A stretch of DNA of 64,000 nucleotides from Phycisphaerae bacterium (GCA_009783465.1 WRDM01000010.1:2660-66659), one strand, 5' to 3'. Shown: positions 668-62,179, numbered from the stretch's first letter. Numbers and translations: made by a program. Notes: generated by a model from the sequence alone, not told the origin.

Positions 668-898
668 TATGGCTCCGCCTGTTTGCGTTGTAGGACGATC
701 CTGTCGGCACATATACGTTTACATGACTTCGCGAAGACCGAGCGGGATTACACGGATTAACGGATTACAAGATTACCGTATGGAACGAATAATCCTTAAA
801 TCCTCTAATCCGCGTAATCCCGCTCGGTCTTCGCGAAATCGGAATGATGCACGTTTATCCGACAAGGTCGTCCTATAGCGCAAACTGGCAAGCCATAT
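668..898. repeat. Nested palindrome: family-D-like outer arms around an inner GGATTA-repeat hairpin (728-837)
   Basis: Outer GTTTGCGTTGTAGGACGATCCTGTCGG pairs with CCGACAAGGTCGTCCTATAGCGCAAAC; inner TTCGCGAAGACCGAGCGGGATTAC pairs with GTAATCCCGCTCGGTCTTCGCGAA. Confidence 0.85.
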
Positions 899-954
899 CA
901 CCATCTCCTCTTCGCCTTGCCTGAACTCCTCGGGGTGGGTATGCTTTGCGTGTC

Positions 955-1665
955 ATGACAACGCCCCAACATCTTGCCGGGAATTTGCTGCGGGTTCGCG
1001 AGAGCATCGCGGCCGCGTGTGGCCGTGCGCGGCGGGATCCGCGCGACGTGACGATGGTGGCGGTGACGAAAACCGCGTCCGTCGAAGCCATTCGTGCGCT
1101 GGTGGATCTTGGCGTGGACGATCTGGGCGAAAGTCGCGTCCAGCAGTTGCAGGAGCGTGCGGCGGAGTTGGCTGCCCTGCCAGGGCGTGCGGTGCGGTGG
1201 CACATGATCGGGCACTTGCAGCGGAATAAAATCAAGGCCGTCCTCGACGCGGGCGTGGAGAGCTTTCACAGCGTGGACTCGTTGCGTCTGGCGGAGGAGT
1301 TGAACGAGCGGGCCGAGCGGATGGGCAAGCGGCTGTCGCTGATGATCCAGGTGAACTGTTCGCGCGAGCCGCAGAAATTCGGCGTGGCGGTGGGGGCGGC
1401 GACGTTCCTTGCCGAAATGCTCGCGTCGCTCAAGCACGTTCGGCTGACGGGGCTGATGACGATGGGGCCGCTGTCGGACGATCCCGAGGCGTCGCGTCCG
1501 TCGTTCGCCCGGCTGCGGGAGTTGATGGACGACATGCACCGCGACGGCATCGGCGGGCCCGAACTTCGCCACCTGTCGATGGGCATGAGCCACGACCACG
1601 CCGTCGCCATCGAGGAAGGCGCGACCATCGTGCGGATCGGCTCGGCGCTGTTTGCAGGCTGTTAG
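955..1665 (+). CDS. yggS: PLP homeostasis protein, YggS family
   Basis: VAVTKT, GESRVQ, WHMIGHLQRNK, LSMGMSHD...AIEEGATIVRIGSALF motifs. Confidence 0.95.
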   Translation: MTTPQHLAGNLLRVRESIAAACGRARRDPRDVTMVAVTKTASVEAIRALVDLGVDDLGESRVQQLQERAAELAALPGRAVRWHMIGHLQRNKIKAVLDAGVESFHSVDSLRLAEELNERAERMGKRLSLMIQVNCSREPQKFGVAVGAATFLAEMLASLKHVRLTGLMTMGPLSDDPEASRPSFARLRELMDDMHRDGIGGPELRHLSMGMSHDHAVAIEEGATIVRIGSALFAGC

Positions 1666-1711
1666 ACGGTTAGCAGGACGAACGCATGTGCATTAATCGA
1701 TTTGTCGCGTG

Positions 1712-1854
1712 ACCTTCGCATTCCGGCGTAACTGGCCGCAGGCCCTGCCAGTTTGCGTTTCAAGTTGTTGTGACAAACAAAACGTTTGTCGCACACCACG
1801 TTCTACAACGCAAAATGGCAGGGCCTGCGGCCAGTCACGCCTGAATGCGAAGGT
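1712..1854. repeat. Family D ~140-bp palindromic element
   Basis: Arms GGCGTAACTGGCCGCAGGCCCTGCCAGTTTGCGTT / AACGCAAAATGGCAGGGCCTGCGGCCAGTCACGCC; related copies at 3670 and 31828. Confidence 0.9.
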
Positions 1855-1964
1855 TGTGAAAAAAAGGAATATACATGCAGATGTCTTGTCTAACAGCCTA
1901 ACAGTCTTTCGCCCCACGACCCTTCCGTACTACAATGATGTAAGCAGAACGTGAGGCGGCAATC

Positions 1965-2606
1965 GTGGCCGAGATCAGTGTGAAACACGCGGACGAAACA
2001 GCGCAGCCCGACGACAGCGAACTGCTGCGTCGTTACCTTGACGGCGACGCGGATTCGTTTGCCGCGCTGATGGAGCGGTATCGCAAGGAGTTGTACAATT
2101 TCCTGGTCCGTTTCACGGGCGACGCGGCCTTGGCGGAGGATGTCTTCCAGGAGGCGTTTTTGCAGTTGCACATTTCGGCGGGGGCGTTCGATTCCAGCCG
2201 GCGTCTCAAGCCGTGGCTGTTCACGATCGCCGCCAACAAGGCCCGCGACGCGATGCGAAGCCGCTGGCGCCGCCAGGCCGCCCCGCTGGACGCGACCGTC
2301 GGACGCGGCGAGGGCGACCGCATCAGCTACGCCGACCTTATGCCCGCACAAATTCCTTCGCCCGACGACGCCATGATGAACCTTGAGATACGGCAGGCCG
2401 TACAAAAAATAGTCGATAAGATGCCGGAGAATCTCCGCGTCGTTTTGCTGCTGAGTTACTTTCACGATTTTCCGTACAAGGAGATCGCGGACATATTGAA
2501 CGTGCCCCTGGGGACCGTAAAATCGCGCCTGCACGCGGCCGTGAGACATTTTGCCAAAGCGTGGAAGGCGACGGCGGAAGCGATAGGTGATGAACGCGAA
2601 ACATAA
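1965..2606 (+). CDS. ECF RNA polymerase sigma factor
   Basis: Region 2 (AEDVFQEAFL, KPWLFTIAANKARD) and region 4 (YKEIADILNVPLGTVKSRLH). Confidence 0.95.
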   Translation: MAEISVKHADETAQPDDSELLRRYLDGDADSFAALMERYRKELYNFLVRFTGDAALAEDVFQEAFLQLHISAGAFDSSRRLKPWLFTIAANKARDAMRSRWRRQAAPLDATVGRGEGDRISYADLMPAQIPSPDDAMMNLEIRQAVQKIVDKMPENLRVVLLLSYFHDFPYKEIADILNVPLGTVKSRLHAAVRHFAKAWKATAEAIGDERET

Positions 2607-3582
2607 CGACGAAACGTTGTTGATTGATTTTCATCTTCGCCGGCTCGACGAGCCGCACGCGCATGAGGTACGGCGTCGGGTGGAGGAGGACGCCGCGTTC
2701 GCGTCCGCGTCGCGGGACGTTGCCCATGCGCTGGGCGCGGTGAATCTGCTGCCCGAACGCGAACCGCCCGCCGACCTCGTCGCCCGCACGATGGCGCGAA
2801 TCGCCCAGGCCAAACAGGACGACGACGTGGTCGCCGACGAGGAGACCGCCAGGCCGCTGTACCGCCCGACGTTTTCGCTGCGCGAAGGGGTGTTCGTGGC
2901 GGCGTCGCTGCTGATTATCGTGAGCATTTTCGTGCCCTCCATGATGGAGGCCAAACACGCCGGTCGGGCCAGGCTCTGCCGCGCGAACATCGGGCAGATC
3001 GGCACGGGCATCCAGGAATTCGCCTCCGCCCACGACGGTTTGCTCCCCTCGGCCGGCGGAAACACGCGCTGGCTCCCAGGCCGCGAACAGGGCGGCGGGA
3101 ACTCCCGCGCGCTCTTCCTGCTGGTACAGGGCAAGTACGTGCCGCAGACGCGGTTCCTCTGCCCGGCCGCCGAGTCGGGCCAACCGTACCAGATCACCGC
3201 GGACATGGAGGATTTTCCCGGCCATCGCAACATCCACTACAGCTACCAGCACACCGTGGGGACCCAGCGTCTCAGCCGGGAGGACCCCAACCTAGTGAAC
3301 GTCGCCTCGGAAATGGTGATCCTCGCCGACGCGACGCCGTTTTATCGCAACCGGACGTTCCGGGCCGACGACCCCGACAGCGCCCTCAGCGACAATCACA
3401 ACCGCACGGGCCAAAACGTGCTCTACTTGGACACGCACGTCGGCTGGACCACCCGCCCGCAGGCGGGCGTCAAGGGCGACCACATCTATCTCGCCGAGGG
3501 GATCTACACCTATTCCGGCGACGAAACACCCACCAGCCCAACCGACACATTTCTCCTGCCGGCCCACTGCGGAGAGGAGTAG
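2590..3582 (+). CDS. Putative anti-sigma factor fused to a DUF1559-like domain
   Basis: Overlaps the sigma gene; ASD-like N-terminus ending EPPADLVARTMARI; one TM after TFSLRE; CRANIGQIG, FLCP and NH..GQNVLYLDTHV motifs. Confidence 0.75.
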   Translation: MNAKHNDETLLIDFHLRRLDEPHAHEVRRRVEEDAAFASASRDVAHALGAVNLLPEREPPADLVARTMARIAQAKQDDDVVADEETARPLYRPTFSLREGVFVAASLLIIVSIFVPSMMEAKHAGRARLCRANIGQIGTGIQEFASAHDGLLPSAGGNTRWLPGREQGGGNSRALFLLVQGKYVPQTRFLCPAAESGQPYQITADMEDFPGHRNIHYSYQHTVGTQRLSREDPNLVNVASEMVILADATPFYRNRTFRADDPDSALSDNHNRTGQNVLYLDTHVGWTTRPQAGVKGDHIYLAEGIYTYSGDETPTSPTDTFLLPAHCGEE

Positions 3583-3669
3583 GCGCGGCTGGCGGACTGA
3601 TCAGGCTTTCCGTTCTGGTGGCGCGGGCAGGGCAAACGCAGGTGTATTTTCCGATTCTTCGTGTGATCG

Positions 3670-3805
3670 TCCTGTTCAGGCGTATCTGGCCACAGGCCCT
3701 GCCAGTTTGCGTTGTCGATCGTTGTGATAAACGAAGCGTTCCGTCGCTCACCACGTCTTACAACGCAAACTGGCAGGGCCTGTGGCCAGATACGCCTGAA
3801 CAGGA
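3670..3805. repeat. Family D palindromic element
   Basis: TCCTGTTCAGGCGTATCTGGCCACAGGCCCTGCCAGTTTGCGTTGT mirrored by its complement at the right end. Confidence 0.9.
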
Positions 3806-4112
3806 ATTCCGTGCGAAAGAGGAATGAGCATGCGTTTATTCTGTTCACGCACGAGGACGGAAATTCCCGAGGCGAGCACGTCAAAATTTTCCGAAAACCT
3901 GAAATAGTCATTGAAACAGCCATTCCAAACGCTTATACACATGGCGTTATCGTTGTTTCAGAGCGAAGCGCGACAGCGCCGGCGGGCCAGCGGAGGCTGG
4001 GCCGGGGTGATGGTACTCGCGTGGCGTCAATCAGGCGAGAATGCTCGAAGTTCCCTGTCAGGGTGACGGGGGCGTCTGGGCATTCGGAATGGATCCATCG
4101 GAAAAGGGAATC

Positions 4113-4619
4113 ATGAGTAAAATTCTTATGCTGTCTGTGGTATCAATGGTTGTCTTTTCCGGGTGCGCGTCCATCATATGCGGCGCGAGGAAGGATGTCA
4201 GAATCACCAGTTCGCCCGAGGCGGCCAGTGTGGTGATTTATGACCGCAACGAGATGAAAGTATGGGAAGCCTCCACGCCCACCGTCGCCAGCTTGAAGCG
4301 TGGGAACGGCTTTTTCCGCGGCGCGTCGTACCGTGTTGAAATCTCGGCCGACGACTTCGAAACCCAGGCCATCCACATCAAGCCGGTGTTGAACGGCTGG
4401 TATTTCGGCAACCTTCTGCTCGGCGGGCTGATCGGCATGGTGATTGTCGACCCGATCTCCGGCGCCATGTGGACGCTAAGCCCGGATGAAACGAACATCG
4501 CCCTGACGGAAGATCTGTCCTTCGACCGCAACGGGGATGCGGACAGGATTCACGTGGTGCTGAGAAAACAGATTCCCGACGACGTGTTCAATACTCTGAA
4601 ACTGGTCAGGCTCAACTGA
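4113..4619 (+). CDS. Lipoprotein with PEGA-like domain and GG-rich membrane hairpin
   Basis: Lipobox FSGC-ASII; ITSSPEAASV; NGWYFGNLLLGGLIGMVIVDPISGAMW. Confidence 0.75.
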   Translation: MSKILMLSVVSMVVFSGCASIICGARKDVRITSSPEAASVVIYDRNEMKVWEASTPTVASLKRGNGFFRGASYRVEISADDFETQAIHIKPVLNGWYFGNLLLGGLIGMVIVDPISGAMWTLSPDETNIALTEDLSFDRNGDADRIHVVLRKQIPDDVFNTLKLVRLN

Positions 4620-4620
4620 C

Positions 4621-5103
4621 ATGCGAGGCCATACGAACCGACTGGGGCGGGCCGCGGTCGCGATGGGGATGTTGGCGGCGTTGCTGTTCCTGGCGACGGG
4701 GTGTGTCGCGACGGTTCCGCTCGAGTCGGCGGCAACGGATGCCGAAAGCAAGCGGTTTCAGGGTCCTTCGGGCGGCATGGCCGGCGTGTATATTTTCCGC
4801 GTGCATACCTATGCGGGGTGCGCGCTGAAAAAAACGGTGAGCGTCGATCATGGGATGCTGGGGGAAACGGCGCCCGGAACGTACTTCTACACGGAGGTGG
4901 AACCCGGGTCGCACCTCATCACGACGCAAGCCGAATTCGACGATGTCAGCATACGTTTTGAAGCCGAGGAGGGGGAGCTTTACTTCTTCGAACAGCACAT
5001 CGTCATGGGCGTAGTCGTCTGGAGCGCGGATATTCGCCCCGTCCACGCGGAGAGCGGCAAGACGGGAGTGCGGTCGTGCCGGCAGGCCAGAGCCTTGCGG
5101 TAG
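4621..5103 (+). CDS. DUF2846-family lipoprotein
   Basis: ATGC-VATVP lipobox; AGVYIFR; GETAPGTYFYTEVEPGSH. Confidence 0.75.
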   Translation: MRGHTNRLGRAAVAMGMLAALLFLATGCVATVPLESAATDAESKRFQGPSGGMAGVYIFRVHTYAGCALKKTVSVDHGMLGETAPGTYFYTEVEPGSHLITTQAEFDDVSIRFEAEEGELYFFEQHIVMGVVVWSADIRPVHAESGKTGVRSCRQARALR

Positions 5104-5224
5104 AACAACGCATCGGGGGCGCGCCTGAAGTCCACAGTTTTTTGTGAAAATTCAACCACACCCACATCCATACGCCTCGCATGAAAGGTTCGCGGCGGCT
5201 TCGCCTTTGCAGTACAATATCCCC

Positions 5225-6583
5225 GTGGATTTATTCAAGCAACTGGAGGTGTCGGCGGTGGCGGCGCATGCGCCGTTGGCGGTTCGCATGCGCCCGCGGA
5301 CGCTGGAGGAGTTTTGCGGGCAGGAGGCGTTTCTGGGCGAGGGGCGGATGTTGCGGCGGATGATTCAGGCGGGGCGGCTGACGAGCGTGGTGTTTTTCGG
5401 GCCTCCCGGAAGCGGCAAGACGACGCTGGCGAACGTGATCGCGAGGCATTTCGATTGTGAGTTTCATCAGGTCAACGCGGCCAGTGCGTCGGTGAAGGAG
5501 GTTCGCGAGATCATCGACGGCGCGCGGGCGTTGCTGGCGTCGAGCGGGCGGCGGACCGTGTTGTTTATCGACGAGTTGCACCGGTTCAATCGCGCCCAGC
5601 AGGACGTGCTGCTCAACGACGTGGAGATCGGCACGATCATTCTGATCGCGGCCACTACGGAGAATCCGTTTTTTTCCATCAATTCGCCGCTGCTGTCGCG
5701 GTCGACAGTGTTCGAGTTCACGGCGTTGTTGGAGGCGGATGTTGTCGCGTTGCTGCGTCGGGCGTTGTCGGATCACGAGCGAGGCCTGGGGCGGTTTGAT
5801 GTGCGGGCGACGGACGAGGCGTTGCTGCATTTGGCGACGGTGTGCGACGGCGACGCGCGGCGGGCGTTGACGGCGTTGGAGGTGGGCGTGCTCAGTCAGG
5901 CCGCCCGCGCGGCGGCGGGGGGCGAGGGCGTGGTGTTCGACTTGCCGATCGCGCAGGAGTCGATTCAGCAGAAGGCGTTGCAATACGATCAGGCGGGCGA
6001 GGGGCATTACGACACGATTTCGGCGTTCATCAAGTCGATGCGTGGCAGCGATCCCGACGCGACGGTGTATTGGCTGGCGAAGATGCTGGTGGCGGGCGAG
6101 GATCCGATGTTTATCGCCAGGCGGATTGCGATTTTGGCGAGCGAGGACATCGGCAATGCGGATCCGCGCGCGATCAGCGTCGCGGCGGCGGCGTATGAGA
6201 TCGTGCATCGCATCGGAATGCCCGAGGGCCAGTTGACGCTCGCGCAGGCGGCGATTTACATGGCCTGCGCCCCCAAGAGCAACCGCTCGGCGGCGGCGAT
6301 CTGGGAAGCGACCGCCGACGTGAAGAACAACCGCACAGCCGCCGTGCCCAAGCATTTACGCAACGCCCCGCACTCGGGGATGAAGTCGCTTGGCTACGGT
6401 GTGGGGTATCAGTACAGTCACGAATTCGCCGGCGGCGTAAGCCCGGACCAGGATTACCTCGGCGTGGATCGGCAGTATTATCAGCCGACCGACCGCGGCT
6501 ATGAGAAGCACATCAAGGAGTACCTGGATTGGGCGGCGAAAATGCGGGAGGATGGGAAGCAGGGTGGGGCCAAGCCCGAATGA
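5225..6583 (+). CDS. rarA: Replication-associated recombination protein A (AAA+)
   Basis: PLAVRMRP, GPPGSGKTT, FIDELHRFNRAQQD, SAFIKSMRGSDPDA. Confidence 0.95.
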   Translation: MDLFKQLEVSAVAAHAPLAVRMRPRTLEEFCGQEAFLGEGRMLRRMIQAGRLTSVVFFGPPGSGKTTLANVIARHFDCEFHQVNAASASVKEVREIIDGARALLASSGRRTVLFIDELHRFNRAQQDVLLNDVEIGTIILIAATTENPFFSINSPLLSRSTVFEFTALLEADVVALLRRALSDHERGLGRFDVRATDEALLHLATVCDGDARRALTALEVGVLSQAARAAAGGEGVVFDLPIAQESIQQKALQYDQAGEGHYDTISAFIKSMRGSDPDATVYWLAKMLVAGEDPMFIARRIAILASEDIGNADPRAISVAAAAYEIVHRIGMPEGQLTLAQAAIYMACAPKSNRSAAAIWEATADVKNNRTAAVPKHLRNAPHSGMKSLGYGVGYQYSHEFAGGVSPDQDYLGVDRQYYQPTDRGYEKHIKEYLDWAAKMREDGKQGGAKPE

Positions 6584-6710
6584 CGAAGCCCGAATTCCGA
6601 AACAATGACGAAGTCCGAATGATCGAATGATGTGGCCATGCCACGCGATGAGTCGGAACACAAACCATTCGTCATTGATTCGTCATTCGGGTTTCGTCAT
6701 TCGGGCTTCG
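6572..6710. repeat. Family F (GAATGAC-repeat) palindrome that supplies the rarA stop
   Basis: AAGCCCGAATGACGAA... pairs with ...TTCGTCATTCGGGCTT; related right arm at about 36377-36413. Confidence 0.85.
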
Positions 6711-6715
6711 AACAA

Positions 6716-8389
6716 TCACCGCAACGCCAAACATCGCCGGATACGGGCGAGTGTTTTTTCTTTTCCTAAAATCGCCAGTGTGTCCGCGATGGGGGGGCTG
6801 ACGGTGGTGCCGGTGACGGCGACGCGGAGGGGTTGGGCGACTTTGCCCATGCCCAGCGCGTTGGTGGCGGCGAAGGTTTCCACGGCGTCGTGCAGCGGCT
6901 GAATTTGCCAGGCCTCCTGCGGCAGCGAGGCCAGGAGCGTTTCCAGTTGCGTGAGGACGTCGAAGCCGGCATTGTTGCCTTTTCGGAGGTTTTTTTCCAC
7001 GGCGGCGGCATCGAAATCGTACGCGTCGTCGGCCTCGAAGAGCACGTTGCACTTGGCGGGCAGGTCGGCCAGGGTGCGGAGCGTTGGCGTTGCCCGCAGC
7101 AGCGTGCGGAGCAGATCGTCGTTGCCGGCGGGGATCGTTGATGCGGGGTTTAAGCGTAGAAAGTCCTTCAACGCGGCCAGACGGCGAGGCTCATCGGCGG
7201 CGGCGAGATCATCGGTGTTGAAGGCGAGCAGTTTGGCCCGGTCAAATCGGGCGTTGGTTTTGCTGACCCGCTCGGACGAGAACATCTCGGTCAGTTCGGC
7301 CAGTGTGAATTTTTCGCGATCCTGGCCGGGATTCCAGCCCAGCAGGGCGACGAAATTAATGACGGCTTCGGGTAGGTAGCCGCTTCGGCGGAAATCGGCG
7401 ACGTCGATTTCGGGCAGGTGGACGTTCAGCGAGGCGGCGAGGTGTTCGAGTTTGGCCAACGGGATGGCGGCGTCGGCGCCGTCGAGCCAGGCGGTCGTTG
7501 TGGCCTCCTCCGCGCCCGCCCGCGAGGCCAGGCCGGCCCGCGTCAGGCCGCCTTTGGCCAGCGCGTCTTTGGCGGCGGCCCGCGTGAGACGGTGTTTGTC
7601 CCGCTTGGACATTTTGCTGTTGTCGGGATTCAAAATCAGCGGCAGATGGCAGTAGCCTTTGGGTTCGGCGAAGCCCCACGCCCGCCGCAGCAGAACGTGC
7701 CGCCACGTTTGCCCCAGGAATTCCTGCCCGCGGACGATGTAGTTGACGCCCATCAGCGCGTCGTCGATGACGTTGGCGGGGTGGTACGTCGGGAAGCCGT
7801 CGGCTTTGAGGAGGACGAAGTCGTCCATCTCGGCTGCCGGCATGGTGACGTCGCCGAACGCGTCGTCATGGATGGTGACGTCCTGCGCGGGGCAGGCGAA
7901 CCGCACGACGACGGGTCGGCCAGCGGCGCGGGCGGCATCGGCGTCGGCGTGCGTGGGGAACGTCGCCGGGCGCGGATAGCGGAAAGGCACCTTGGCGGCC
8001 TCCGCGGCGGCGCGAAGGACCTTCTCCTCCGCCTCCGTCTCGAAGCAATAATACGCTAGTCCCGCATCGACGAGCCGGCGGATGTGCTCAGCGTAAATCG
8101 CCAGCCGCTCGCTCTGCCGGTACGGCCCGTTGGGGCCTCGGCCGATCGGCAGGCCGTCGGGGCCGATATCCACGCCCTCGTTCCAATCCAGCCCCAGCCA
8201 GCGGAGGTCCTCGATGATCCGCGGAATGGCTTCCTCGATGTGCCGTTCGCGGTCGGTGTCCTCGATGCGAAGCACAAACTCCCCGCCGCTTTGACGGGCG
8301 AGGCAGTACGAAAATATCGCGGTCCGGGCCTGCCCGATATGCAGCAGACCCGTCGGCGACGGGGCGAAACGCGTTTTGAGTTTGTCCAT
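6716..8389 (-). CDS. gltX: Glutamate-tRNA ligase with an insertion after the KMSK motif
   Basis: TRFAPSPTG, HIGQ, LRIEDTD, KMSKR, PLRVAVTG. Confidence 0.95.
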   Translation of the reverse strand: MDKLKTRFAPSPTGLLHIGQARTAIFSYCLARQSGGEFVLRIEDTDRERHIEEAIPRIIEDLRWLGLDWNEGVDIGPDGLPIGRGPNGPYRQSERLAIYAEHIRRLVDAGLAYYCFETEAEEKVLRAAAEAAKVPFRYPRPATFPTHADADAARAAGRPVVVRFACPAQDVTIHDDAFGDVTMPAAEMDDFVLLKADGFPTYHPANVIDDALMGVNYIVRGQEFLGQTWRHVLLRRAWGFAEPKGYCHLPLILNPDNSKMSKRDKHRLTRAAAKDALAKGGLTRAGLASRAGAEEATTTAWLDGADAAIPLAKLEHLAASLNVHLPEIDVADFRRSGYLPEAVINFVALLGWNPGQDREKFTLAELTEMFSSERVSKTNARFDRAKLLAFNTDDLAAADEPRRLAALKDFLRLNPASTIPAGNDDLLRTLLRATPTLRTLADLPAKCNVLFEADDAYDFDAAAVEKNLRKGNNAGFDVLTQLETLLASLPQEAWQIQPLHDAVETFAATNALGMGKVAQPLRVAVTGTTVSPPIADTLAILGKEKTLARIRRCLALR

Positions 8390-8479
8390 GGCCGACACTA
8401 TAGCACAAGGAACGACGAGTGACGAGTGATGAGTGGCGAGGACTTCGAGATTGGCTGCATGTCACGATTTGTAGACGCA

Positions 8480-8537
8480 CATCATCGCATAGCCCAACCT
8501 AGCCACAGGCCCTGCCAGGTTGGGCTATGCGATGATG
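8480..8537. repeat. Short hairpin carrying the family-D core CCACAGGCCCTGCC in its loop
   Basis: CATCATCGCATAGCCCAACCT / AGGTTGGGCTATGCGATGATG perfect arms. Confidence 0.8.
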
Positions 8538-8587
8538 CTGCCTGTTCGCGTGACATACGTCCATTGTCTCTCATTACTTTTTTCTCC

Positions 8588-8603
8588 TGGCACGCCGTGT
8601 GCA
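8588..8603 (+). promoter_or_regulatory. Sigma54 (-24/-12) promoter of the flagellar export operon
   Basis: TGGCACGCCGTGTGCA = GG-N10-GC, about 25 nt upstream of the fliO ATG. Confidence 0.7.
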
Positions 8604-8628
8604 TGGCATCGCACAAATGCGCGCTGTG

Positions 8629-9372
8629 ATGAACAAAATTTTGACGTTACCGCAGGTCAAACGCACGTTGTGGCTGATGGGGGCGTTGTTGGCCTGCGTC
8701 ATCTGTTTGACGATCGCCTCGCCGGGGCGGGGACAATCGCCACCGACCGGACTGCCTCCGACGCCTCCGGCCGAACGTGGCGAGGGCGTCTCGCCCTCGC
8801 GGGATGTTCCGCCCGCGCCGGGGGACGAAGAGGGGTCGGCGCCTTCCGATGACCCTGCCCATGGGACGCACAACGCGGGCGAGACGCCCGCGTCACGTGA
8901 GGGGGGCACCCCGCCTGCCTCGCCACTGCCCACACGTGGCGAAGGCGGGCTGCCGACGAAGCCGAATCCGTCCACGCCGTTTGGGTGGGAGTTGTTGACG
9001 TCGGTGCTGGTTGTGCTGGTGCTGGGCGGCGTTGCGTTTGTGGTGATTAAGCGGGTTCTGCCGCGGTGGAAACTGGGTTCGCTGGTTGGCGGGGGGCGGC
9101 AGGTCCGGCTGCGGGAGTCGGTCAGCCTGGGGTTGCGGCAGCAGGTGCACTTGTTGGAGGTTGGTGGCCGGCGGCTGTTGGTTTCTTCCACGCGGGAAAA
9201 TATTCGCCTGCTGGCGGACGTCACGGATGCGTTTGACGAAGGCCAGGGCGTCGGCGCGGAAGCGGGCGCGGTGTCAGGCCCGGCGGCGGGGGCTGTGTCG
9301 GATCCAGGCCAACAGCGGGGCCAGGGCGGTTTTGCGGGACTTTTCGAGAAAAAACTGGGAGGCGATGCGTGA
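8629..9372 (+). CDS. fliO: Flagellar biogenesis protein FliO-like, with long Pro-rich linker
   Basis: TM followed by VRLRESVSLGLRQQVHLLEVGGRRLLV; directly upstream of fliP. Confidence 0.8.
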   Translation: MNKILTLPQVKRTLWLMGALLACVICLTIASPGRGQSPPTGLPPTPPAERGEGVSPSRDVPPAPGDEEGSAPSDDPAHGTHNAGETPASREGGTPPASPLPTRGEGGLPTKPNPSTPFGWELLTSVLVVLVLGGVAFVVIKRVLPRWKLGSLVGGGRQVRLRESVSLGLRQQVHLLEVGGRRLLVSSTRENIRLLADVTDAFDEGQGVGAEAGAVSGPAAGAVSDPGQQRGQGGFAGLFEKKLGGDA

Positions 9373-10196
9373 TGGTTCGCAACCTTCTACTTCTGGCCAC
9401 GGTGACGGCGACGCTTCTGCTGGCCGCCGACGTGGCCGCCCAGACGCCGCTCGCGCCCGCGCCCGCAGGCCAAACGCCCGCACAGGCCGGGCCCGCCGTG
9501 CCGGAAATCTCCGATGTCCTCAACGTCATCGACAAGGCCACCGCCTCCAACGGACAGGCTGCCAACGACTGGTCGGCGCCTGTCAAAACCGCCATCGTTT
9601 TCACGTTTCTCGCCCTCCTGCCGACCGTGCTGGTGATGATGACGAGTTTTACCCGCATCGTGATCGTGCTGGGGTTTGTCCGGCGGGCGCTCACCACGCA
9701 GTCGATTCCGCCGACCATCGCGATCATCGGCCTGGCGCTGTTTCTGACGTTCTTCACGATGGCCCCGACGTTCGGTAGAATCAAGGAGCAGGCGCTCGAT
9801 CCGTATTTGAAGGACCAGATTGCCTTCGACGTGGCCGTCATGCGCGGCAACGAAGAACTCAAGGAATTCATGATCCGCCAGACGCGGACGAGCGATCTGG
9901 GATTTTTCATCGACCTGGCGGGCATCGACATGCCGCAGTCGGTGGCGGAGGTGCCCAACTACATCGCGATCCCCGCGTTCGCCATCAGCGAATTTCGGAC
10001 GGCCTTCGAAATGGGCTGCCTGCTGTTTATCCCGTTTTTGCTGGTGGATCTGGTCATCAGCAGCATTCTGTTGTCGGCGGGCATGATGATGCTGCCGCCG
10101 GCGATGATTTCGCTGCCGTTCAAGATCATCCTGTTCGTCCTGGTCGACGGCTGGCAACGACTGGCCCAGACGTTGGTGATGAGTTTTTCATACTGA
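9369..10196 (+). CDS. fliP: Flagellar export gate protein FliP
   Basis: MMTSFTRIVIVL, GMMMLPPAMISLPFKIILFVLVDGW. Confidence 0.97.
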   Translation: MMVRNLLLLATVTATLLLAADVAAQTPLAPAPAGQTPAQAGPAVPEISDVLNVIDKATASNGQAANDWSAPVKTAIVFTFLALLPTVLVMMTSFTRIVIVLGFVRRALTTQSIPPTIAIIGLALFLTFFTMAPTFGRIKEQALDPYLKDQIAFDVAVMRGNEELKEFMIRQTRTSDLGFFIDLAGIDMPQSVAEVPNYIAIPAFAISEFRTAFEMGCLLFIPFLLVDLVISSILLSAGMMMLPPAMISLPFKIILFVLVDGWQRLAQTLVMSFSY

Positions 10197-10356
10197 AGCC
10201 AGTAGCCAATAGCCAGTAGCCAATAGGTAAGGAACGCCGGCGGCGAAAAGACAATGAAAGTGGGAATGAACATGGCCATGGAAAAAAAATCCGGCCCGTG
10301 TGATGCAACGGCAGGCCTGCCATACCTGCTGGCTACTGGCTATTGGCTATTGGCTG
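10197..10356. repeat. Family A element (GCCARTA heptamer arms, GGTA...TACC inner boundary)
   Basis: GCCAGTAGCCAATAGCCAGTAGCCAATAGGT ... ACCTGCTGGCTACTGGCTATTGGCTATTGGC. Confidence 0.9.
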
Positions 10357-10365
10357 GGGTGTCGT

Positions 10366-10635
10366 ATGGATGAAGACATGGTGATTTATCTTGGCCGGCG
10401 GACGTTGGAAGTGGCGATGTTGGTGGCGGCGCCGGTGTTGACGGTGGCGTTGGTGGTGGGCATCTTGACGGGCATGATGCAGGCGGTCACGTCCATGCGG
10501 GACATGACGACGGGCATGGTGTTAAAACTCGCCGCCGTCGGCGCGACGTTGATCCTCACCGGCGGCTGGGTGTTGCAGATGGCCAAGAGTTTCACCATCG
10601 AAATTTTCAACACGATGCAGGCGATAGGACATTAA
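10366..10635 (+). CDS. fliQ: Flagellar export protein FliQ
   Basis: 89-aa two-TM protein, MQAVTSMRDMT...KL, between fliP and fliR. Confidence 0.9.
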   Translation: MDEDMVIYLGRRTLEVAMLVAAPVLTVALVVGILTGMMQAVTSMRDMTTGMVLKLAAVGATLILTGGWVLQMAKSFTIEIFNTMQAIGH

Positions 10636-10636
10636 C

Positions 10637-10920
10637 GGCAGCCACTAGCCACAAGGTATGGAAGGGTTGGCCGCATGAAAACGACGATAAATCCGAAACA
10701 CGAAACACGAAATCCGAAACAAATTCTGAACGACAAGTTCGAAAAACCAAACGCTTCGCACCGGAGCGTCACGGCGTGCGGGAAGCGAAGCGTTTGGAGT
10801 TTGGTTTTTGTCGTTTGTGATTTGTTTCGGATTTCGTGTTTCGGATTTCGGATTTCCAATCGTTTTCATGCGACAGGGCGTGCCCTACCTTGTGGCTTGT
10901 GGCTAGTGGCTAGTGGCTTC
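10637..10920. repeat. Family A element enclosing a family B (CGAAATC/CGAAACA heptamer) palindrome
   Basis: Outer GCCACTAGCCACAAGGTA / TACCTTGTGGCTTGTGGCTAGTGGC; inner AAATCCGAAACACGAAACACGAAATCCGAAACAAAT / ATTTGTTTCGGATTTCGTGTTTCGGATTT. Confidence 0.9.
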
Positions 10921-10931
10921 GAGGTTGGAAC

Positions 10932-11687
10932 GTGAGTTGGCTTTGGCCCATCCTTTGGCCGTTTATGCCGTTGTTGGCGCGGGTGGGTGGTTTTTTGGTG
11001 GCGGGGCCGATTTTCAGTTCCGCGTCGGTGCCGATGGTGGTCCGCGTGGGCGTGGTGTTGCTGTTGACGGTGTTTTTCGGGCTTTCGGGCGGGTTCGCGG
11101 CCATGCCGCCGATGGACGGCAATCCGGTGGCGGATTCGCTGTTGTTGGCGAAGGAGCTGTTGATCGGGCTGGCGTTGGGGCTGTCGTGTAACCTGGTGTA
11201 CCTGGCCGTTCAGCAGGGCGCCCGCATCACCGCGCAGCAGATGGGTATGCACGACGCCGGGCTGCTGGACCCGATCTCGGGCGAGGAGGCCCAGGCGGTG
11301 GGCATGTTGTTCGAGATGGTATTCGCGATGTTGTTTCTGACGGCCGGCGGGCACTTGGTGATGTTGAATTTGTTGGCACAGAGTTATGGCGCGTTTCCGG
11401 CGGCGGCGCCGGTGGACACGGCGGCGTTGGCGGGCATGGTGATGACGGCCAGTTCGACGATGTTGGTATTGGCGTTGAAGATGGCGGCCCCGATGCTGGC
11501 GGCGTTTCTTGTGCTGTCGGTGGTGTTGGCGGTGTTGGCGCGCGTGCTGCCGGAGATCAACATTCTCCTGGCCAGCTTTCCGCTCCGCATCGGCCTGGGG
11601 CTGCTCATGGCGGCCGGCATGATGCCCGCGCTGGGCGGCATGGCGCAGTGGATCGCGGAATGGATGACAAGGATAACTGTTTTGTAG
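10932..11687 (+). CDS. fliR: Flagellar export protein FliR
   Basis: ARVGGFLVAGPIFS, KELLIG, QQMG, GGH, ARVLPEINI. Confidence 0.93.
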   Translation: MSWLWPILWPFMPLLARVGGFLVAGPIFSSASVPMVVRVGVVLLLTVFFGLSGGFAAMPPMDGNPVADSLLLAKELLIGLALGLSCNLVYLAVQQGARITAQQMGMHDAGLLDPISGEEAQAVGMLFEMVFAMLFLTAGGHLVMLNLLAQSYGAFPAAAPVDTAALAGMVMTASSTMLVLALKMAAPMLAAFLVLSVVLAVLARVLPEINILLASFPLRIGLGLLMAAGMMPALGGMAQWIAEWMTRITVL

Positions 11688-11730
11688 TTTGGAATGTGTT
11701 TCGAATTTCGAGTTTCGGATTTCGAATTTG
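11688..11730. repeat. Solitary right arm of a family B heptamer repeat
   Basis: TGTTTCGAATTTCGAGTTTCGGATTTCGAATTT immediately after the fliR stop. Confidence 0.7.
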
Positions 11731-11739
11731 AGTTGAGCG

Positions 11740-12903
11740 ATGGCTGAGCAAAGTGCTGCCGAAAAAAAACACGCCCCAACCCTTCAGCGGATCAAGAAGG
11801 CCCGCGAGGAAGGCAAGGTGCCCCAGAGCCAGGAGGTCTCCAGCGCGTTGATGCTGGTGACGCTGCTGGGTCTTCTGGCGGCCTGCGCGGGGTCGTTGTT
11901 GAATTGCTTCAGCGATTTGATTTCCCGCGGCGTGTCGTACACGTATCGGCCTGACATGACCGAGGCGGATCTGATGAGTTCGGCGCTTCACAGTACGATT
12001 ACGGCGGTGGGGGCGACGGCGCCGTTTCTGCTGGGGACGCTGGTCGTCAGCATTGCCGGCAGCTTTCTGGTCAGCGGATGGAGCTTCTCCCCCAAGGCGG
12101 CGAAGGTTGATTTCTCGAAGATCAACCCGGTCAAGGGAATGAAGAATCTGTTCAATTCCCGCAGCCTGGTGACGCTGGTGACGGCCTTGGTCAAACTGAC
12201 CGTGTTGGTGGCGATCGTGTGGGAATACGTGCACGACAAGAAGGAGACGTTGCTGTCGCTGACGAACTGCACGCTGGCGGAGACGCTCTCGCAGATCGGC
12301 TCGCTCGTGATGGGCGTGAGCGTCCGCATCGTGTTGGCCATTCTCGCCATCGCGGGCGCGGACCTGGTGTGGCAGAAATGGAAATACAAACGGGAACTGC
12401 GGATGACCGATCAGGAGATGAAGGAAGAACGTAAGCAGTACGACGGCAACCCGCAGGTCAAAGGGCGAATTCGCACGCTGCAAATCGAGATGGCCCGCAA
12501 GCGGATGCTCCAGGCGGTGTCCCAGGCCGACGTTGTGCTGGTCAACCCCACGCACGTGGCCGTGGCCATGCGGTACGACATGGCCACCATGGCCGCGCCG
12601 ATCGTGCTGGCCAAGGGCGGCGACCTGCTGTGCGAGAAGATCAAGGAGATCGCCCGCGCCCATTCCGTGCCGATCGTTCACAGGCCCGAACTGGCCCGCG
12701 CGATCTTCGGCCAGGTGGACATCAACGAACCGATCCCCGAAACCCTCTTCGTCGCCGTCGCCGAAGTCCTCGCGATGGTCTATCGAGTCAACCGGGCGAG
12801 ACGACGGACCGAGGCACCGGCTGGCACGCGGCGACGAGACAGCAGCCACAAGCCACTAGCCACAAGCCACAAGGTACGGGGCGACGACGGCGATGGCGTG
12901 TAG
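11740..12903 (+). CDS. flhB: Flagellar export switch protein FlhB
   Basis: KAREEGKVPQSQE; LVNPTHVAVA autocleavage motif; tail SSHKPLATSHK is translated repeat. Confidence 0.97.
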   Translation: MAEQSAAEKKHAPTLQRIKKAREEGKVPQSQEVSSALMLVTLLGLLAACAGSLLNCFSDLISRGVSYTYRPDMTEADLMSSALHSTITAVGATAPFLLGTLVVSIAGSFLVSGWSFSPKAAKVDFSKINPVKGMKNLFNSRSLVTLVTALVKLTVLVAIVWEYVHDKKETLLSLTNCTLAETLSQIGSLVMGVSVRIVLAILAIAGADLVWQKWKYKRELRMTDQEMKEERKQYDGNPQVKGRIRTLQIEMARKRMLQAVSQADVVLVNPTHVAVAMRYDMATMAAPIVLAKGGDLLCEKIKEIARAHSVPIVHRPELARAIFGQVDINEPIPETLFVAVAEVLAMVYRVNRARRRTEAPAGTRRRDSSHKPLATSHKVRGDDGDGV

Positions 12904-13383: not shown

Positions 13384-13389
13384 TTCCTC

Positions 13390-15681: not shown

Positions 15682-15701
15682 GTTTCCGGCGCGAGGCGAC
15701 G

Positions 15702-49337: not shown

Positions 49338-49392
49338 TATGTCTTTACCGCCTCCTGTGGTATGATTACCCGTGCTACTAAGGAGCGAACAG

Positions 49393-53031: not shown

Positions 53032-53172
53032 CATGTCGTTTGTTCGAGGGGATGTTTTCGTTAACTCGTTGACTCGTTAACTGGTTGACTGGTTGACTGG
53101 TGGGGTTTTTCGAGTTTACGAATTAACGAGTCAACGAGTTAACGAAAACATCCCCTCGAACAAACGACCATG
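53032..53172. repeat. Family G octamer palindrome
   Basis: TCGTTTGTTCGAGGGGATGTTTTCGTTAACTCGTTGACTCGTTAA mirrored at the right end. Confidence 0.9.
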
Positions 53173-55197: not shown

Positions 55198-55212
<15 letters not shown>

Positions 55213-55362
55213 CCAATAGCCAGTAGCCAATAGGTACGGATCGCTATGGGCGAAAAGGCAGTGAAAGCGGAAACAAACATGGAGATAATGTAAGGATATG
55301 ATCGTGTGAGTTGTGGCAGGCTTGTCCATACCTGATGGCTACTGGCTAATGGCTATTGGCTG
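55198..55362. repeat. Family A element that supplies the ABC-F stop
   Basis: GCCAGTAGCCAATAGCCAGTAGCCAATAGGTA ... TACCTGATGGCTACTGGCTAATGGCTATTGGCT. Confidence 0.9.
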
Positions 55363-55924: not shown

Positions 55925-56079
55925 GGCAGCCAGTAGCCAATAGCCAGGAGCCAGCAGGTGTGGAAAGACAAGGGCGAAAAAGGCAATGAATGCGGCAATG
56001 ATTGTTGTACAGCGAAGAATTTTGATCGTGTGAAGAACAATAAAGTTCGCCATACCTACTGGCTATTGGCTACTGGCTT
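55925..56079. repeat. Family A element
   Basis: GCCAGTAGCCAATAGCCAGGAGCCAGCAGG ... TACCTACTGGCTATTGGCTACTGGCT. Confidence 0.88.
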
Positions 56080-56169
56080 GTCTCCCTCGAACGAATCGCT
56101 CGCTCACGCCACGCGATCGGAAACCCACAGGCCCTTCCACGCATCGCCGCGGGATGGTACATTCATTCC

Positions 56170-58487: not shown

Positions 58488-58980
58488 CGGGTGTGCCCAC
58501 ATTTTCTGGCACAGGGCGAGTCGTTGGTTTTTCGTCGAAAACAACCGCTTGCCTTCCCTGGCCTCGCGCGGAAACGCCGGGTCGTAGCCCCAACGGGGCG
58601 TCTTGGGTAGCCCAGGGTGAGCGGTACGCCGCGAACCCTGGGACGAGGTTCGCTGTTCGTTTTTCATCGTGCCTGACGCCACTGGCCGAGGTCGCGCACG
58701 CGGGCCTGCACGACTTCGAACGACACGAACAAGGGAATATGCGAGTCGTTCGAAGCCGTGTTCGCGCGACGGTGCGACTTCGGCCAGTGGCGCCAGGCAC
58801 GATGAAGGAATTCGTACAACACTCGCAATCCCAGGGTTCGCCGAGTACGGCTCACCCTGGGCTACCCAAGACGCCCCGTTGGGGCTGCGACCCGGTGTTT
58901 CCGCGAAGGGCTGGGGAGGATAGCCGGTTATTTTCGACGTGAAAACCATACGGATGACCTTGTGCCAGATATTTTTTCGC
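58488..58980. repeat. Family C palindrome flanked by 11-bp direct repeats
   Basis: Long mirrored arms; TCCACTATATA at 58477-58487 and 58981-58991. Confidence 0.88.
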
Positions 58981-60171: not shown

Positions 60172-60218
60172 AACCGCTCCCGTTCGGAGGTATTGTAAAA
60201 TGGCGTACACGCAGTCAC

Positions 60219-60357
60219 AAGCCAGTAGCCATCAGGTATGGCTGGGTTTGTTGCCCATTGCACGATCCTGGTATTTGTCGCTCACATGCCCGTTCCCGTT
60301 TTCACTGCCTTTTCGCCTTTGTCTTTCCATATCTACTGGCTATTGGCTACTGGCTTG
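60219..60357. repeat. Family A element, spacer inverted relative to the 55198/55925 copies
   Basis: AGCCAGTAGCCATCAGGTATGG ... TACTGGCTATTGGCTACTGGCT. Confidence 0.85.
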
Positions 60358-60411
60358 TTTCCCTCGAACGAATTTTTCGCTCGCTCAACGAGATGGAAAA
60401 TCACTCGCCGT

Positions 60412-61563
60412 TCACCCCGTATTCCGTTGCGGACGGAAGCCGAATTTCACGAACGGGTTGGCGCCTTTGATTCGCGGGAACAGCAGCGACCAGTCGCGCA
60501 GGCTGGCGATGGGCGTGCCGGCGTGCCGCATCTCGATGATTCGCTGGGCTGTGATCGGCCCGACGCCCGGCACGCGGAGCAGTTCCCACTTACTGGCCCG
60601 ATTGACGTCCACGGGAAAATAGTGTGGATTTCGCGACGCCCACGCCGTCTTCGGATCCGTCGCGAGCGACAAATTGCCGTCGGTCTCGAACGGAATTTCC
60701 TCATCCGAAAAGCCGTATTTCCGCATCAGCCACTCGGCTTGATAAAGCCGATGCTCGCGTGTCAGCACGTCGTTGGGGTTGGCCAGTTCACGACGTTCGC
60801 CAGGCAGGCGTTCGTCGCCCAGGCCCCGCTGGTAGGCACTGTAATACACGCGGCTCATCCCCATACGGCGGTACAGGCCGAACGTCGCCTTGACCAGGTG
60901 GGTATCCGTCTCGTCGGCCGCCCCGACGACGAACTGCGTGAACGGCTTCACCCGCGAGTACTTCGCGCCGGGGGCGGTCAACTGGGCGATCCGCCGGATG
61001 CCGCCGACGATGTCGCGCTCGAAATCCTTCGTTGGCGACAACTGCTTAAACGCGGCCTGATGCGGCGCCTCCACATTCAACGACACTTGCGACGACACGC
61101 GCAACGCCGCCTCAATGGCCGCATCCGACGAACCCGGAATGATCTTCAAGTGAATGAACCCGTGAAACTGATGCCGCCCCCGCAGCACCTCGGCCACCTC
61201 CACAAGTTTGCCCATCGTGTGGTCCGCGTCGCGAATCACACCCGAACTCAAAAACAGTCCAAACACCAGCCCCCGCCGCACGTACGACATCAACGCCGTC
61301 GCGATCTCCTCCGCCGCCAGGCTGTACCGCGGCACGTCCCGCCCGTCGCGGAAGGGGCAGTAGCGGCAATCGTTGACGCACACGTTCGACAGCAGCGTCT
61401 TGAAAATAATGTCCCGCCCGCCCCGCGGCGTCGACATCGGATACAGCCACGCGCCGTCCTTGCCACGAACGCGATGCGTGTCCTTACTCTTCGTCCCGCA
61501 CGCGCACGCCAGGTCATACCGCGACGCGTCCGCCAAGTACTCCAACTTTTGTTGCGTGTCCAT
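60412..61563 (-). CDS. Putative DNA modification/repair radical SAM protein with HhH
   Basis: CVNDCRYC, FLSSG, IHLKIIPG, REHRLYQAEWL, LLRVPGVGP. Confidence 0.9.
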   Translation of the reverse strand: MDTQQKLEYLADASRYDLACACGTKSKDTHRVRGKDGAWLYPMSTPRGGRDIIFKTLLSNVCVNDCRYCPFRDGRDVPRYSLAAEEIATALMSYVRRGLVFGLFLSSGVIRDADHTMGKLVEVAEVLRGRHQFHGFIHLKIIPGSSDAAIEAALRVSSQVSLNVEAPHQAAFKQLSPTKDFERDIVGGIRRIAQLTAPGAKYSRVKPFTQFVVGAADETDTHLVKATFGLYRRMGMSRVYYSAYQRGLGDERLPGERRELANPNDVLTREHRLYQAEWLMRKYGFSDEEIPFETDGNLSLATDPKTAWASRNPHYFPVDVNRASKWELLRVPGVGPITAQRIIEMRHAGTPIASLRDWSLLFPRIKGANPFVKFGFRPQRNTG

Positions 61564-61639
61564 GCTCTCGCTCCCCGACAGGCTTGAAGCCCGTCACTGT
61601 TCATAAGTTCCAAACGTCAAAACCGCCCACGGGCAAATC

Positions 61640-62179
61640 GGGTGTGGTTGAATTCTCCGGCACGGCGAAACGGTCTGGTTTTTCGTGGGAAACAACCGAT
61701 TGTCCTCCCCGGCCTCGCGCGGTAGCCGCCGGTCCGCAGCCTCAACGGGGCGTTTGATGTAGCCCCCTGCTTCGCTCTGCGAGCTACGCAGGGTGAGCGG
61801 TACTCGCGAACCCTGGGTTTGCGGGCGTTTTTTGGCTTTTCACCGCGGCCTGACGCTACTGGCCGCACGTCATACCGTCGCGTGAAGGCGGCGGCGAACG
61901 ACTCACACATTCCCGTGTACGCGTCGTCCGAAGCCGTATTCGCATGACGGTGCGTCCTCGGTCAGTGGCGTCAGGCCGCGACGAGGACGAGAAAACTTGT
62001 CCCCAGGGTTCGCGGAGTACGCTCACCCTGCGTAGCTCGCAGAGCGAAGCAGGGGGCTACATCAGACGCCCCGTTGGGGCTGCGTGCCGGCGACTTCCGC
62101 GCGAGGCCGGGGAGGACAATCGGTTGTTTCCCACGGAAAACCAGACCGTTTCGCCGTGCCGGAAAATCTAACCACACCC
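61640..62179. repeat. 540-bp family C palindrome with a mirrored insert in both arms
   Basis: GGGTGTGGTT...AACCACACCC ends; about 250-bp arms. Confidence 0.92.

Follow-up and report, generated by a model that had tools for sequence, protein, structure and literature searches.

Several described systems resemble the repeats considered here. The intervening sequences (IVSs) of 23S rRNA carry an S23p (PF05635) open reading frame (ORF) and are excised by RNase III, and the NCBIfam/TIGRFAMs descriptions of TIGR02436 and TIGR04256 note that genes of these families are flanked by short tandem repeats. Intergenic heptamer repeats are known in cyanobacteria as short tandemly repeated repetitive (STRR) sequences, and such repeats have puzzled workers for decades, in cyanobacteria as well as in giant sulfur bacteria. 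We analyzed a stretch of 64,000 nucleotides from a termite-gut Phycisphaerae bacterium (GCA_009783465.1 WRDM01000010.1:2660-66659), hereafter the window, for which an initial annotation made from the sequence alone had described nested palindromic elements at gene junctions. Our preferred reading, to which we assign a probability of about 0.7, is that gene-less copies of selfish palindromic insertions, of two kinds, are scattered all over the window: cassettes with tandem-repeat arms (class 1) and GC-rich fold-backs similar to REPINs, the hairpin-forming doublets of repetitive extragenic palindromic (REP) sequences (class 2).

The source assembly (G000) has 2.48 Mb in 70 contigs, 62% G+C, and is rated about 70% complete; the window is C10:2660-66659, and names such as C1, C12, C18, C23, C31 and C50 denote other contigs of the same assembly. 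Genes were called by a simple codon-usage caller trained on long ORFs, which is crude, its stops being reliable and its starts unreliable; it called 52 window genes and 1852 genes in all, with 84% coding sequence and a median gap of 160 nt. Tandem arrays were identified by Tandem Repeats Finder (TRF), inverted repeats were listed within 700 nt, gaps were folded by minimum free energy, and each folded element was compared with 200 shuffles.

The window contains 55 inverted pairs, the largest having arms of 178 nt with 92% identity (61640-62179), and dozens of period-7/8 arrays arranged as inverted pairs. A dispersed repeat or a 7/8-mer array was found in 29 of the 40 window gaps of at least 50 nt and, given the crude gene calls, in 936 of 1340 gaps in the genome; the filled gaps include co-directional ones inside the fliR-flhB-flhA run. 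Gap folds reach about -0.5 to -0.85 kcal per nt, and all eight folded representatives are far more stable than their shuffled versions (z from -7.9 to -19.9; 0 of 200 shuffles fold as well). At the genome level, TRF rows concentrate at periods 7 (660) and 8 (467), compared to 20, 126 and 103 rows at periods 5, 10 and 11, and minus-strand self matches cover 8.8% of the bases three or more times. An Rfam scan of the window gave no match at the gathering score, rRNA included. The initial annotation had claimed that most gaps, also those within operons, hold a hairpin element, which the gap counts and the folds bear out; its estimate of about 30 copies in about nine families is a fair count; and its statement that the window has no transposase agrees with the lack of Y1_Tnp, RVT_1 and TnpB-TNB matches on the whole contig, where PF05635 and TIGR04256 matches are also absent, other transposase families not having been searched. 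The junction-filling fold-back pattern is real and partly new.

Class 1 elements have a short core between two inverted arms, each made of three to six tandem units that are 7 or 8 nt long. Period-7/8 arrays were merged and then paired nearest-first under a strict rule within 1.2 kb, which gave 873 arrays, with 85% of the array bases being intergenic, and at least 242 inverted cassette pairs (484 arrays), the other 389 arrays being unpaired under this rule; the cassette interiors cluster at 25–50 nt and 100–150 nt. All four PF05635 genes of the genome are situated between inverted arrays whose units recur in window elements:

C18:27251-27565, PF05635 gene, arm unit AGCCAAT
C18:23914-24231, PF05635 gene, arm unit GTGACAA
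C31:13364-13678, PF05635 gene, arm unit GGCTGTA
C50:1209-1421, PF05635 gene, arm unit CCCGAATGACGAA

These genes score 44–127 bits with PF05635, and the three scored on TIGR02436 (four helix bundle protein) reach 106–120 bits at a cut-off of 24; two of these three also match weakly Avd, a protein of diversity-generating retroelements. The nearest relatives are at most 54% identical, and the nearest solved one is Xanthomonas XCC0516 (2gsc, five chains). The sole TIGR04256 (GxxExxY) match in the genome (C12:42891-43235, 134 bits) lies between CACAGAG arms, and the same unit forms window elements 26231-26441 and 50406-50527 and a half-array near 44480. Short tandem repeats flanking four-helix-bundle and GxxExxY genes, which the initial annotation had named as a frequent, known association, are thus present at five of five genes here, and each of the five has a gene-less family of its own unit.

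The AGCCANN family (98 pairs by first pairing) has three types of core: a conserved, non-palindromic core of about 100 nt termed A1, a palindromic core, or a hybrid of the two. The four-helix-bundle cassette C18:27124-27726 and the consensus of 43 A1 copies agree in two stretches, one of about 23 nt that follows the left arm and one of about 26 nt that precedes the right arm, which is the pattern of an internal-deletion derivative. The class 1 copies of the window are gene-less and, on our preferred reading, internally deleted relatives of gene-bearing cassettes. They resemble miniature inverted-repeat transposable elements in having terminal inverted repeats, no ORF, sub-terminal sequence in common with a gene-bearing relative and a far higher copy number, and differ from them in that the gene-bearing form encodes no recognised transposase. 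The complementarity of own versus foreign arms in 95 A cassettes (mean 26.4 versus 21.9, own partner best in 9) is too weak to indicate compensatory change.

The putative link of class 1 to the IVSs is through the cargo protein family: gene-bearing copies carry PF05635/TIGR02436 genes, and in both systems inverted repeats make a long stem. Gene-less versions occurring beside gene-bearing ones are likewise described for rRNA insertions (10.1101/2024.02.27.582315). In contrast to the 23S rRNA IVSs, all copies here lie between protein genes and not in rRNA helices, the arms are built of tandem 7/8-nt units, hundreds of copies are gene-less, and RNase III excision would apply here by analogy. The TAACTGA repeats of Beggiatoaceae and cyanobacteria, as portrayed in PMC4679880, are similar in being tandem 7-nt units that are intergenic, near gene ends and contain stop codons; that account has them as direct repeats, with one inverted case among 169 sets, whereas the arrays here flank a core as inverted pairs and are linked with cargo genes. 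As 484 of the 873 arrays have an inverted partner, they do not conform to the direct-heptamer definition of TAACTGA and STRR repeats.

Frames in six other large cassette interiors (9–10 frames) matched no Pfam or NCBIfam family above noise, and no third cargo type was seen among them. Cassette-like arms at G000:C60:47-837 (L008; CTAACAGT arms) and G000:C13:16496-17476 (L010; GGCTGTA arms) enclose ORFs of 159–240 aa with no family match, one of which shows an N-terminal methylation motif weakly; host genes that were trapped, or additional types of cargo, may be present here.

Class 2 comprises families E and C, the latter with alternative cores, of which B is one. In a genome search seeded with the window elements, C had about 200 arms forming 81 pairs, B had 136 arms forming 58 pairs, and E had 194 arms forming 90 pairs, the C and E pairs falling into narrow spacing classes. 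Sixty two of the 81 C interiors are of 167–196 nt and hold B, and 17, of 92–116 nt, hold a small hairpin; the C pair at C23:13319-14094 has a 653-nt interior enclosing a 176-aa ORF, which scores 87 bits with Y1_Tnp and 76.6 bits with the NCBIfam IS200 model NF033573 (cut-off 55). Similarly, an ORF of 197 aa, in which the motif H-I-H-V-L occurs, is enclosed by the E pair C1:94358-95085. One such Y1/HUH transposase-like gene was found for each family in the 70%-complete assembly. In the C arm, GTAG precedes a stem of 7 bp, and the arm also carries a hairpin that ends in CGTC; GTAG and CGTC are the REP tags defined by Di Nocera et al. (PMC3733652).

In this respect class 2 is similar to REP/REPIN elements with their REP-associated tyrosine transposases (RAYTs) and to TIRYT elements, as these are presented in PMC3116915 and PMC3733652: C and E are inverted short palindromes within one long hairpin, present in about 80–100 copies, and a single copy encloses a Y1-type gene. 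Unlike REPIN/RAYT systems, the elements here are up to 540 nt long, with up to five concentric layers and alternative cores (B, small hairpin, transposase), the C-associated protein passes the IS200 and not the RAYT model, and the E-associated ORF stays below the cut-offs. From these matches we regard the biology of class 2 as REPIN-like, with its proteins scoring below the cut-off of the RAYT model; class 2 belongs to an already known kind of element. Full-length copies enclosing an ORF, which the initial annotation had suggested looking for, thus exist in both classes: four with four-helix-bundle genes, one with a GxxExxY gene, one with a Y1 gene in C arms and one with a weakly RAYT-like ORF in E arms. 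A second, weak Y1_Tnp match (40 bits) was seen at G000:C1:1556-1828 (L006) inside a 942-aa open frame.

The window elements, which lie among ordinary housekeeping genes (flhA, those for glutamyl- and lysyl-tRNA synthetases, an ABC-F protein, an SMC-like ATPase and others), are as follows; X[Y] denotes Y enclosed by X.

660-905, D-family fold-back, inner GGATTA-type octamer arrays 745-769 and 790-820 (inverted pair, TRF; fold z -12.5)
1671-1879, E-family REPIN-like fold-back, arms 1712-1759 and 1807-1854 (fold z -15.3)
3626-3843, E-family fold-back, arms 3670-3727 and 3748-3805 (fold z -15.5)
6572-6708, tandem-repeat cassette between convergent genes, unit CCCGAATGACGAA, as at PF05635 gene C50:1209-1421 (z -9.3)
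8414-8440, unpaired GACGAGT heptamer array (TRF)
8480-8537, small hairpin, its loop being the E core motif
8774-8917, unclassified GC-rich dispersed repeat, 57 minus-strand matches of about 70–76% identity
10197-10355, plus strand, A1 cassette with AGCCANT arms and conserved polar core, beginning 1 nt past the upstream stop
10640-10920, nest with ungapped 120-nt arms, an inner hairpin lying in a CGAAAYA-heptamer cassette that is itself flanked by AGCCAC arms
11699-11729, unpaired TTTCGAA heptamer array between a fliR-like gene and flhB
12844-13382, nest in the flhB/flhA gap, AGCCACA arms (12844-12879 and 13347-13382) around a C element with small-hairpin core (12932-13266)
15491-15679, AAGCCAC cassette, flhA stop inside its left arm
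20144-20220, hairpin of CATTCGCGA units, not dispersed in the genome (z -8.5)
25621-25666, self-complementary GTTAACTA octamer array
26231-26441, CACAGAG-unit cassette, unit as at GxxExxY gene C12:42891-43235
29039-29167, TAACTCGT octamer cassette (z -7.9)
31789-31975, E-family fold-back, arms 31816-31885 and 31906-31975
33578-33688, partial octamer-family element with TTCGAGGGG end motif
36067-36444, composite, palindrome 36168-36314 with GGCTGTA arrays (36206-36221 and 36265-36283), CGAAAT-type array on the left and CGAATGA-type on the right
37798-38342, nest with ungapped 162-nt arms, successive layers O, C and B inside a palindromic rim that has CGAAAT units and is nearly unique
41301-41383, small low-copy hairpin
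44066-44369, C[B] composite fold-back, followed by a CACAGAG half-array at about 44480-44520
45258-45458, AGCCAAT cassette
47501-47674, AGCCACA cassette
49229-49344, GTGACAA-unit cassette, unit as at PF05635 gene C18:23914-24231
50406-50527, CACAGAG hairpin between convergent genes, 58-nt arms with 100% complementarity (z -19.9)
53035-53168, octamer (GTTGACTG/TAACTCGT) cassette, TTCGAGGGG outer motif on both sides (z -15.3)
55204-55362, plus strand, A1 cassette, ABC-F gene stop inside its left arm
55928-56078, plus strand, A1 cassette, TTCGAGGGA motif at 56083-56091
58505-58969, multilayer C[B] fold-back with extra outer layers
60213-60399, minus strand, A1 cassette in reverse orientation between minus-strand genes
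61640-62179, largest fold-back, five concentric layers around C[B], 178-nt arms (92%)

The repeat at 8774-8917 is not palindromic like the others and may be partly coding.

Comparison with relatives shows that orthologous junctions are mostly empty. The fliR-flhB-flhA synteny is kept in the family, and the flhB-flhA junction was scored in ten relatives with both genes on the locus: it is compact in seven, spans about 100 nt without arrays in one and has heptamer arrays of quite different units in two, while here the gap is 459 nt and is occupied by A[C]. Homology of FlhB (gene at 11740-12903) stops at residues 355–364 of 387, and its tail, roughly residues 369–387, is read from the repeat arm. 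Seven relatives carry the gene pair around the C18 four-helix-bundle cassette on a single contig; the two genes are separated by 47–82 nt in five of them and by 143 and 377 nt in the remaining two, compared to 614 nt here. The left arm of this cassette begins directly after the last conserved codons of the upstream gene, whose frame (L001:1-1407) crosses the arm to a TAA at the arm's inner edge, and the right arm ends 4 nt before the downstream ATG. Since the tails of both FlhB and the C18 upstream protein are read from arms, annotated protein ends in this genome are often repeat-derived.

Around the ABC-F gene, three of five genomes have the gene, without conserved neighbors. In one relative (L141, G003:C360), a CCAGTTAA octamer array at 669-705 lies about 20 nt past the end of the ABC-F match: another genus and another unit, with the same habit. 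Contigs G003:C71 and G011:C180 have an empty C18-pair junction and, a few kb upstream, PF05635 genes, so that neighboring junctions of one gene cluster have been hit in different genera. A gene of the four-helix-bundle family between cmr3 and cmr2 in a cyanobacterium, mentioned in PMC3936711, fits this junction habit.

The cassettes are also polar. The A1 core is oriented with transcription in 16 of 17 plus-plus and 12 of 12 minus-minus gene contexts (28 of 29 co-directional ones), and the window has forward copies (55204 and 55928) 4 kb from a reverse one (60213), so the orientation follows the genes and not the contig. At 31 family loci, the four-helix-bundle gene is co-oriented with both neighbors in 24 cases, opposed to both in one and mixed in four, one neighbor being uncalled in two. 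Among the 484 arms, 251 have stops in all three frames when read inward and 42 have none; for outward reading the numbers are 98 and 226, respectively. The upstream stop codon is inside an arm or at most 20 nt away in 116 of 217 cases. The arms thus close the frames for ribosomes entering from either side, and insertion therefore costs the host little.

The same data could be read differently, namely as host-selected RNA elements (RNase III sites, 3'-end stabilisers, terminators or translational decouplers) that tune operon expression, the repeat nature being secondary. We consider this explanation rather improbable. It would account for the occupancy of 936 of 1340 gaps, the stops in or near the arms (116 of 217) and the strong polarity, and such roles are discussed for REPs in PMC3733652 and for TAACTGA repeats in PMC4679880. 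It fits less well with junctions being compact in most relatives, with units differing between genera at one junction, with the existence of gene-bearing master copies and with the lack of a U-tract, judged by eye, in most elements and of an Rfam family. The elements also differ from intrinsic terminators, having stems of 30–260 bp, lying inside operons and mostly lacking a T-run, although no terminator scanner was run.

The initial annotation had further claimed that unrelated families nest symmetrically at each other's center. The chain counts of layered modules given here are lower bounds, as strict thresholds miss diverged copies. B pairs lie inside a scored C pair in 47 of 58 cases and most of the rest inside C variants; the C[B] spacers are of 23–29 nt on each side, and the axes agree within 2.5 nt in 36 of the 47 scored pairs. 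C[B] is thus a fixed composite. Likewise, D arms enclose GGATTA-type octamer arrays in 23 of 24 genome pairs, which makes 668-898 one family rather than two. The claim is correct for 10640-10904 and 37798-38342 (described as 10637-10920 and 37788-38345), true symmetric multilayer palindromes, each a unique combination, whose arms run without gaps over 120 and 162 nt. The A[C] element 12844-13382 is a true nest but is 14–15 nt off center, with unequal and unpaired spacers, and the supposed triple nest 36059-36360 has unlike arrays on its two outer sides. Most nesting is composite architecture that spreads as a unit, and independent nests are few.

Palindromes extend outward in discrete steps (0–15, about 35, 50–60, about 100 and about 140 nt), and the copy number drops stepwise from core to rim. 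G arms wrap either E (three chains, with unequal spacers) or C[B] (at least four chains), and D arms once wrap G[C[B]], the octamer core being replaced symmetrically. Another scored element was found inside only four of the 242 tandem-repeat cassettes, 15–31 nt off the axis, and a genome-wide module scan with strict thresholds found no empty outer hairpins. According to PMC3733652, REP dimers also occur inside larger palindromes, for which that report found no empty targets, and REPs serve as insertion targets for insertion sequences as described in PMC1525189. The latter case sets a precedent for mobile DNA entering palindromic repeats; the inserts here are small palindromes, unlike the full insertion sequences with DDE or DEDD transposases treated there.

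The motif GTTCGAGGGA / TCCCTCGAAC brackets many A1 (AGCCANN) and TAACTCGT-type (AAC..GTT) octamer cassettes, with window sites at 53043-53051, 53152-53160, 56083-56091 and 60360-60368. The 9-mer TTCGAGGGA has 136 exact copies in the genome (68 per strand), whereas 20 permuted motifs average 12 copies and reach 42 at most; of the 136 copies, 116 are outside gene bodies, and 67 of 242 cassettes are flanked by it. With one mismatch allowed, it has 18 matches within the window versus 17.5 expected, the enrichment being genome-wide and in exact copies. None of the 31 GGCTGTA and none of the 30 CTAACAG cassettes is flanked by it; hence some families share an outer end and others do not. GTTCGAGGGA / TCCCTCGAAC may be the true terminal repeat of one super-family.

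These data bear on two explanations of the layers. The first, put forward in the initial annotation, is one shared trans-acting machinery that recognizes hairpin apices and gene ends, inserts every family and makes the concentric nests. It would explain the base-symmetric unique nests 10640-10904 and 37798-38342, the wrapping of E or C[B] by G and of G[C[B]] by D with symmetric core replacement, and the outer motif TTCGAGGGA common to AGCCANN and AAC..GTT octamer cassettes; the replacement of helix tips by known rRNA IVSs would be a parallel. However, at least two unrelated Y1-type genes each have their own palindrome family, with the tandem-repeat cassettes in addition, TTCGAGGGA is absent from the GGCTGTA and CTAACAG cassettes, and apex targeting is not borne out as a rule, given that most nests are inherited composites, the inner elements of cassettes are rare and off axis, G[E] spacers are unequal and no empty outer hairpins were found. 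A single machinery is therefore quite improbable.

The second explanation is outward growth in place: a fold-back intermediate would carry flanking sequence, and copying across the hairpin would make the flank palindromic, so that the layers would not be insertions. The outer 80 nt or so of 37798-38342 are nearly unique in the genome and nevertheless pair with their partner, which hints at such growth rather than insertion; the stepwise fall in copy number from core to rim, the absence of empty outer modules and the small number of arm indels despite 75–82% identity point the same way. Module G surrounding two unrelated cores means that core exchange would be needed too, and low-copy families could look unique in a 70%-complete assembly. 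We regard outward growth as having a low probability and favor, for the few independent nests, selfish insertions of the two classes, which would have landed secondarily in the unpaired core of another element.

The class 1 architecture extends far beyond this genome. Of 41 genomes of the family, 38 have several copies of PF05635, and inverted tandem arms with 7-, 8- or 14-nt units of many sequences were seen, without a shuffle control, at 28 of 31 family loci and were absent at three. A wider sample covered 77 loci (Bacteroidota, Planctomycetota, Acidobacteriota, Chloroflexota, Firmicutes, a cyanobacterium, Mesorhizobium and others). At 52 of them the flanks match each other in inverted orientation better than in 20 shuffles, and 40 of these are periodic (period 7, 20 loci; 14, 12 loci; 8, seven loci; 16, one locus).

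An artefact of assembly or binning of the metagenome-assembled genome is hardly credible as an explanation. The contigs do end in repeats, some of them near-identical (98%) copies (e.g. C18:1-139, C30:1-136, C11:1-133 and C60:5723-5854), so that the assembly breaks at the youngest elements and their number is under-counted. The assembled (Logan) contigs of four DNA runs on window positions 1-20000 are fragmentary, being short unitigs with many chimeric joints between copies of the same repeat (e.g. 12891 to 13346), and empty sites are indistinguishable from other copies. On the other side, the elements are internal to long contigs, where conserved genes in syntenic order surround them, a DNA run labelled termite gut metagenome contains 0.81 of the words sampled from window positions 9300-16200, and the same architecture recurs in relatives (38 of 41 genomes) and, in other phyla, in named isolates.

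We therefore retain the reading of two kinds of selfish insertion. Class 1 cassettes land at stop/start junctions, pointing with transcription, and elsewhere in the genome their core holds a four-helix-bundle gene of the 23S rRNA IVS family or a GxxExxY gene, each with its own unit. A tentative guess, less likely than not, is that they move as a folded single strand, the tandem arms being recognized by the cargo protein, which gene-less copies would borrow in trans. Class 2 most likely moves by single-strand cut and paste of the RAYT/IS200 type, as its enclosed ORFs suggest, and single-stranded hairpin loops would be natural targets of such Y1 transposition. At the RNA level, all elements would form long stems in operon transcripts, and RNase III-type cleavage of these stems, as in rRNA IVSs, is plausible. 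A more elaborate version, in which the tandem-repeat cassettes would be distinct, phylum-spanning intervening elements, seems unlikely as a whole: a pentameric four-helix-bundle (or GxxExxY) protein would read its own array of four to five 7-nt units, the cassettes, as folded single strands, would enter hairpin tips and stop/start junctions in sense orientation, copies without a gene would be moved in trans, and RNase III would cut the stem from mRNA as from 23S rRNA, splitting operons post-transcriptionally at hundreds of sites.

Several observations weigh against the insertion reading. Inter-copy identity is mostly 70–80%, and only 134 of 21566 matches of at least 120 nt reach 95%; most copies thus appear to be old, and the activity may be ancient, with the reservation that the assembly breaks at young repeats. 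The octamer families (CTAACAGY, TAACTCGT, GGATTA) and the CGGATTT heptamers have no gene-bearing copy in the approximately 70%-complete assembly, and neither RVT_1 nor the TnpB TNB domain was found in it, so that this search gave no mover for class 1; four-helix-bundle and GxxExxY proteins are not known to have a catalytic domain. For class 2, the ORF in C arms is above the cut-off of the IS200 model and, with 29 bits, below that of the RAYT model NF047646 REP_Tyr_transpos (80), and the E-associated ORF, with 18.5 bits for Y1_Tnp and 25 bits for the RAYT model (cut-off 80), is below every curated cut-off. The biases in orientation and stop codons could stem from selection after random insertion, and the gene calls are crude, with unreliable start codons.

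A search of the literature found no paper that derives heptamer hairpins without a gene from four-helix-bundle or GxxExxY cassettes, and none on junction insertions, the orientation rule or inward stops. The gene-less expansion of class 1 and these three features look new, the bare association of gene and repeats being already known. The genome ties repeats to proteins, the repeats being cassette arms and the proteins cargo, and its gene-less copies fill about two thirds of the intergenic gaps, splitting translationally coupled pairs and sealed by stops. An annotation curiosity thereby becomes a testable system, with respect to the cargo protein binding its own unit array, the cutting of stems in mRNA and the moving enzyme. 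For annotators, the C-terminal tails of many proteins here, FlhB being one case, are read from repeat arms, and CRISPR and repeat finders will trip on such arrays. The strong hairpin at 20144-20220, which is built from CATTCGCGA units and flanked by T-rich sequence, may simply be a terminator.

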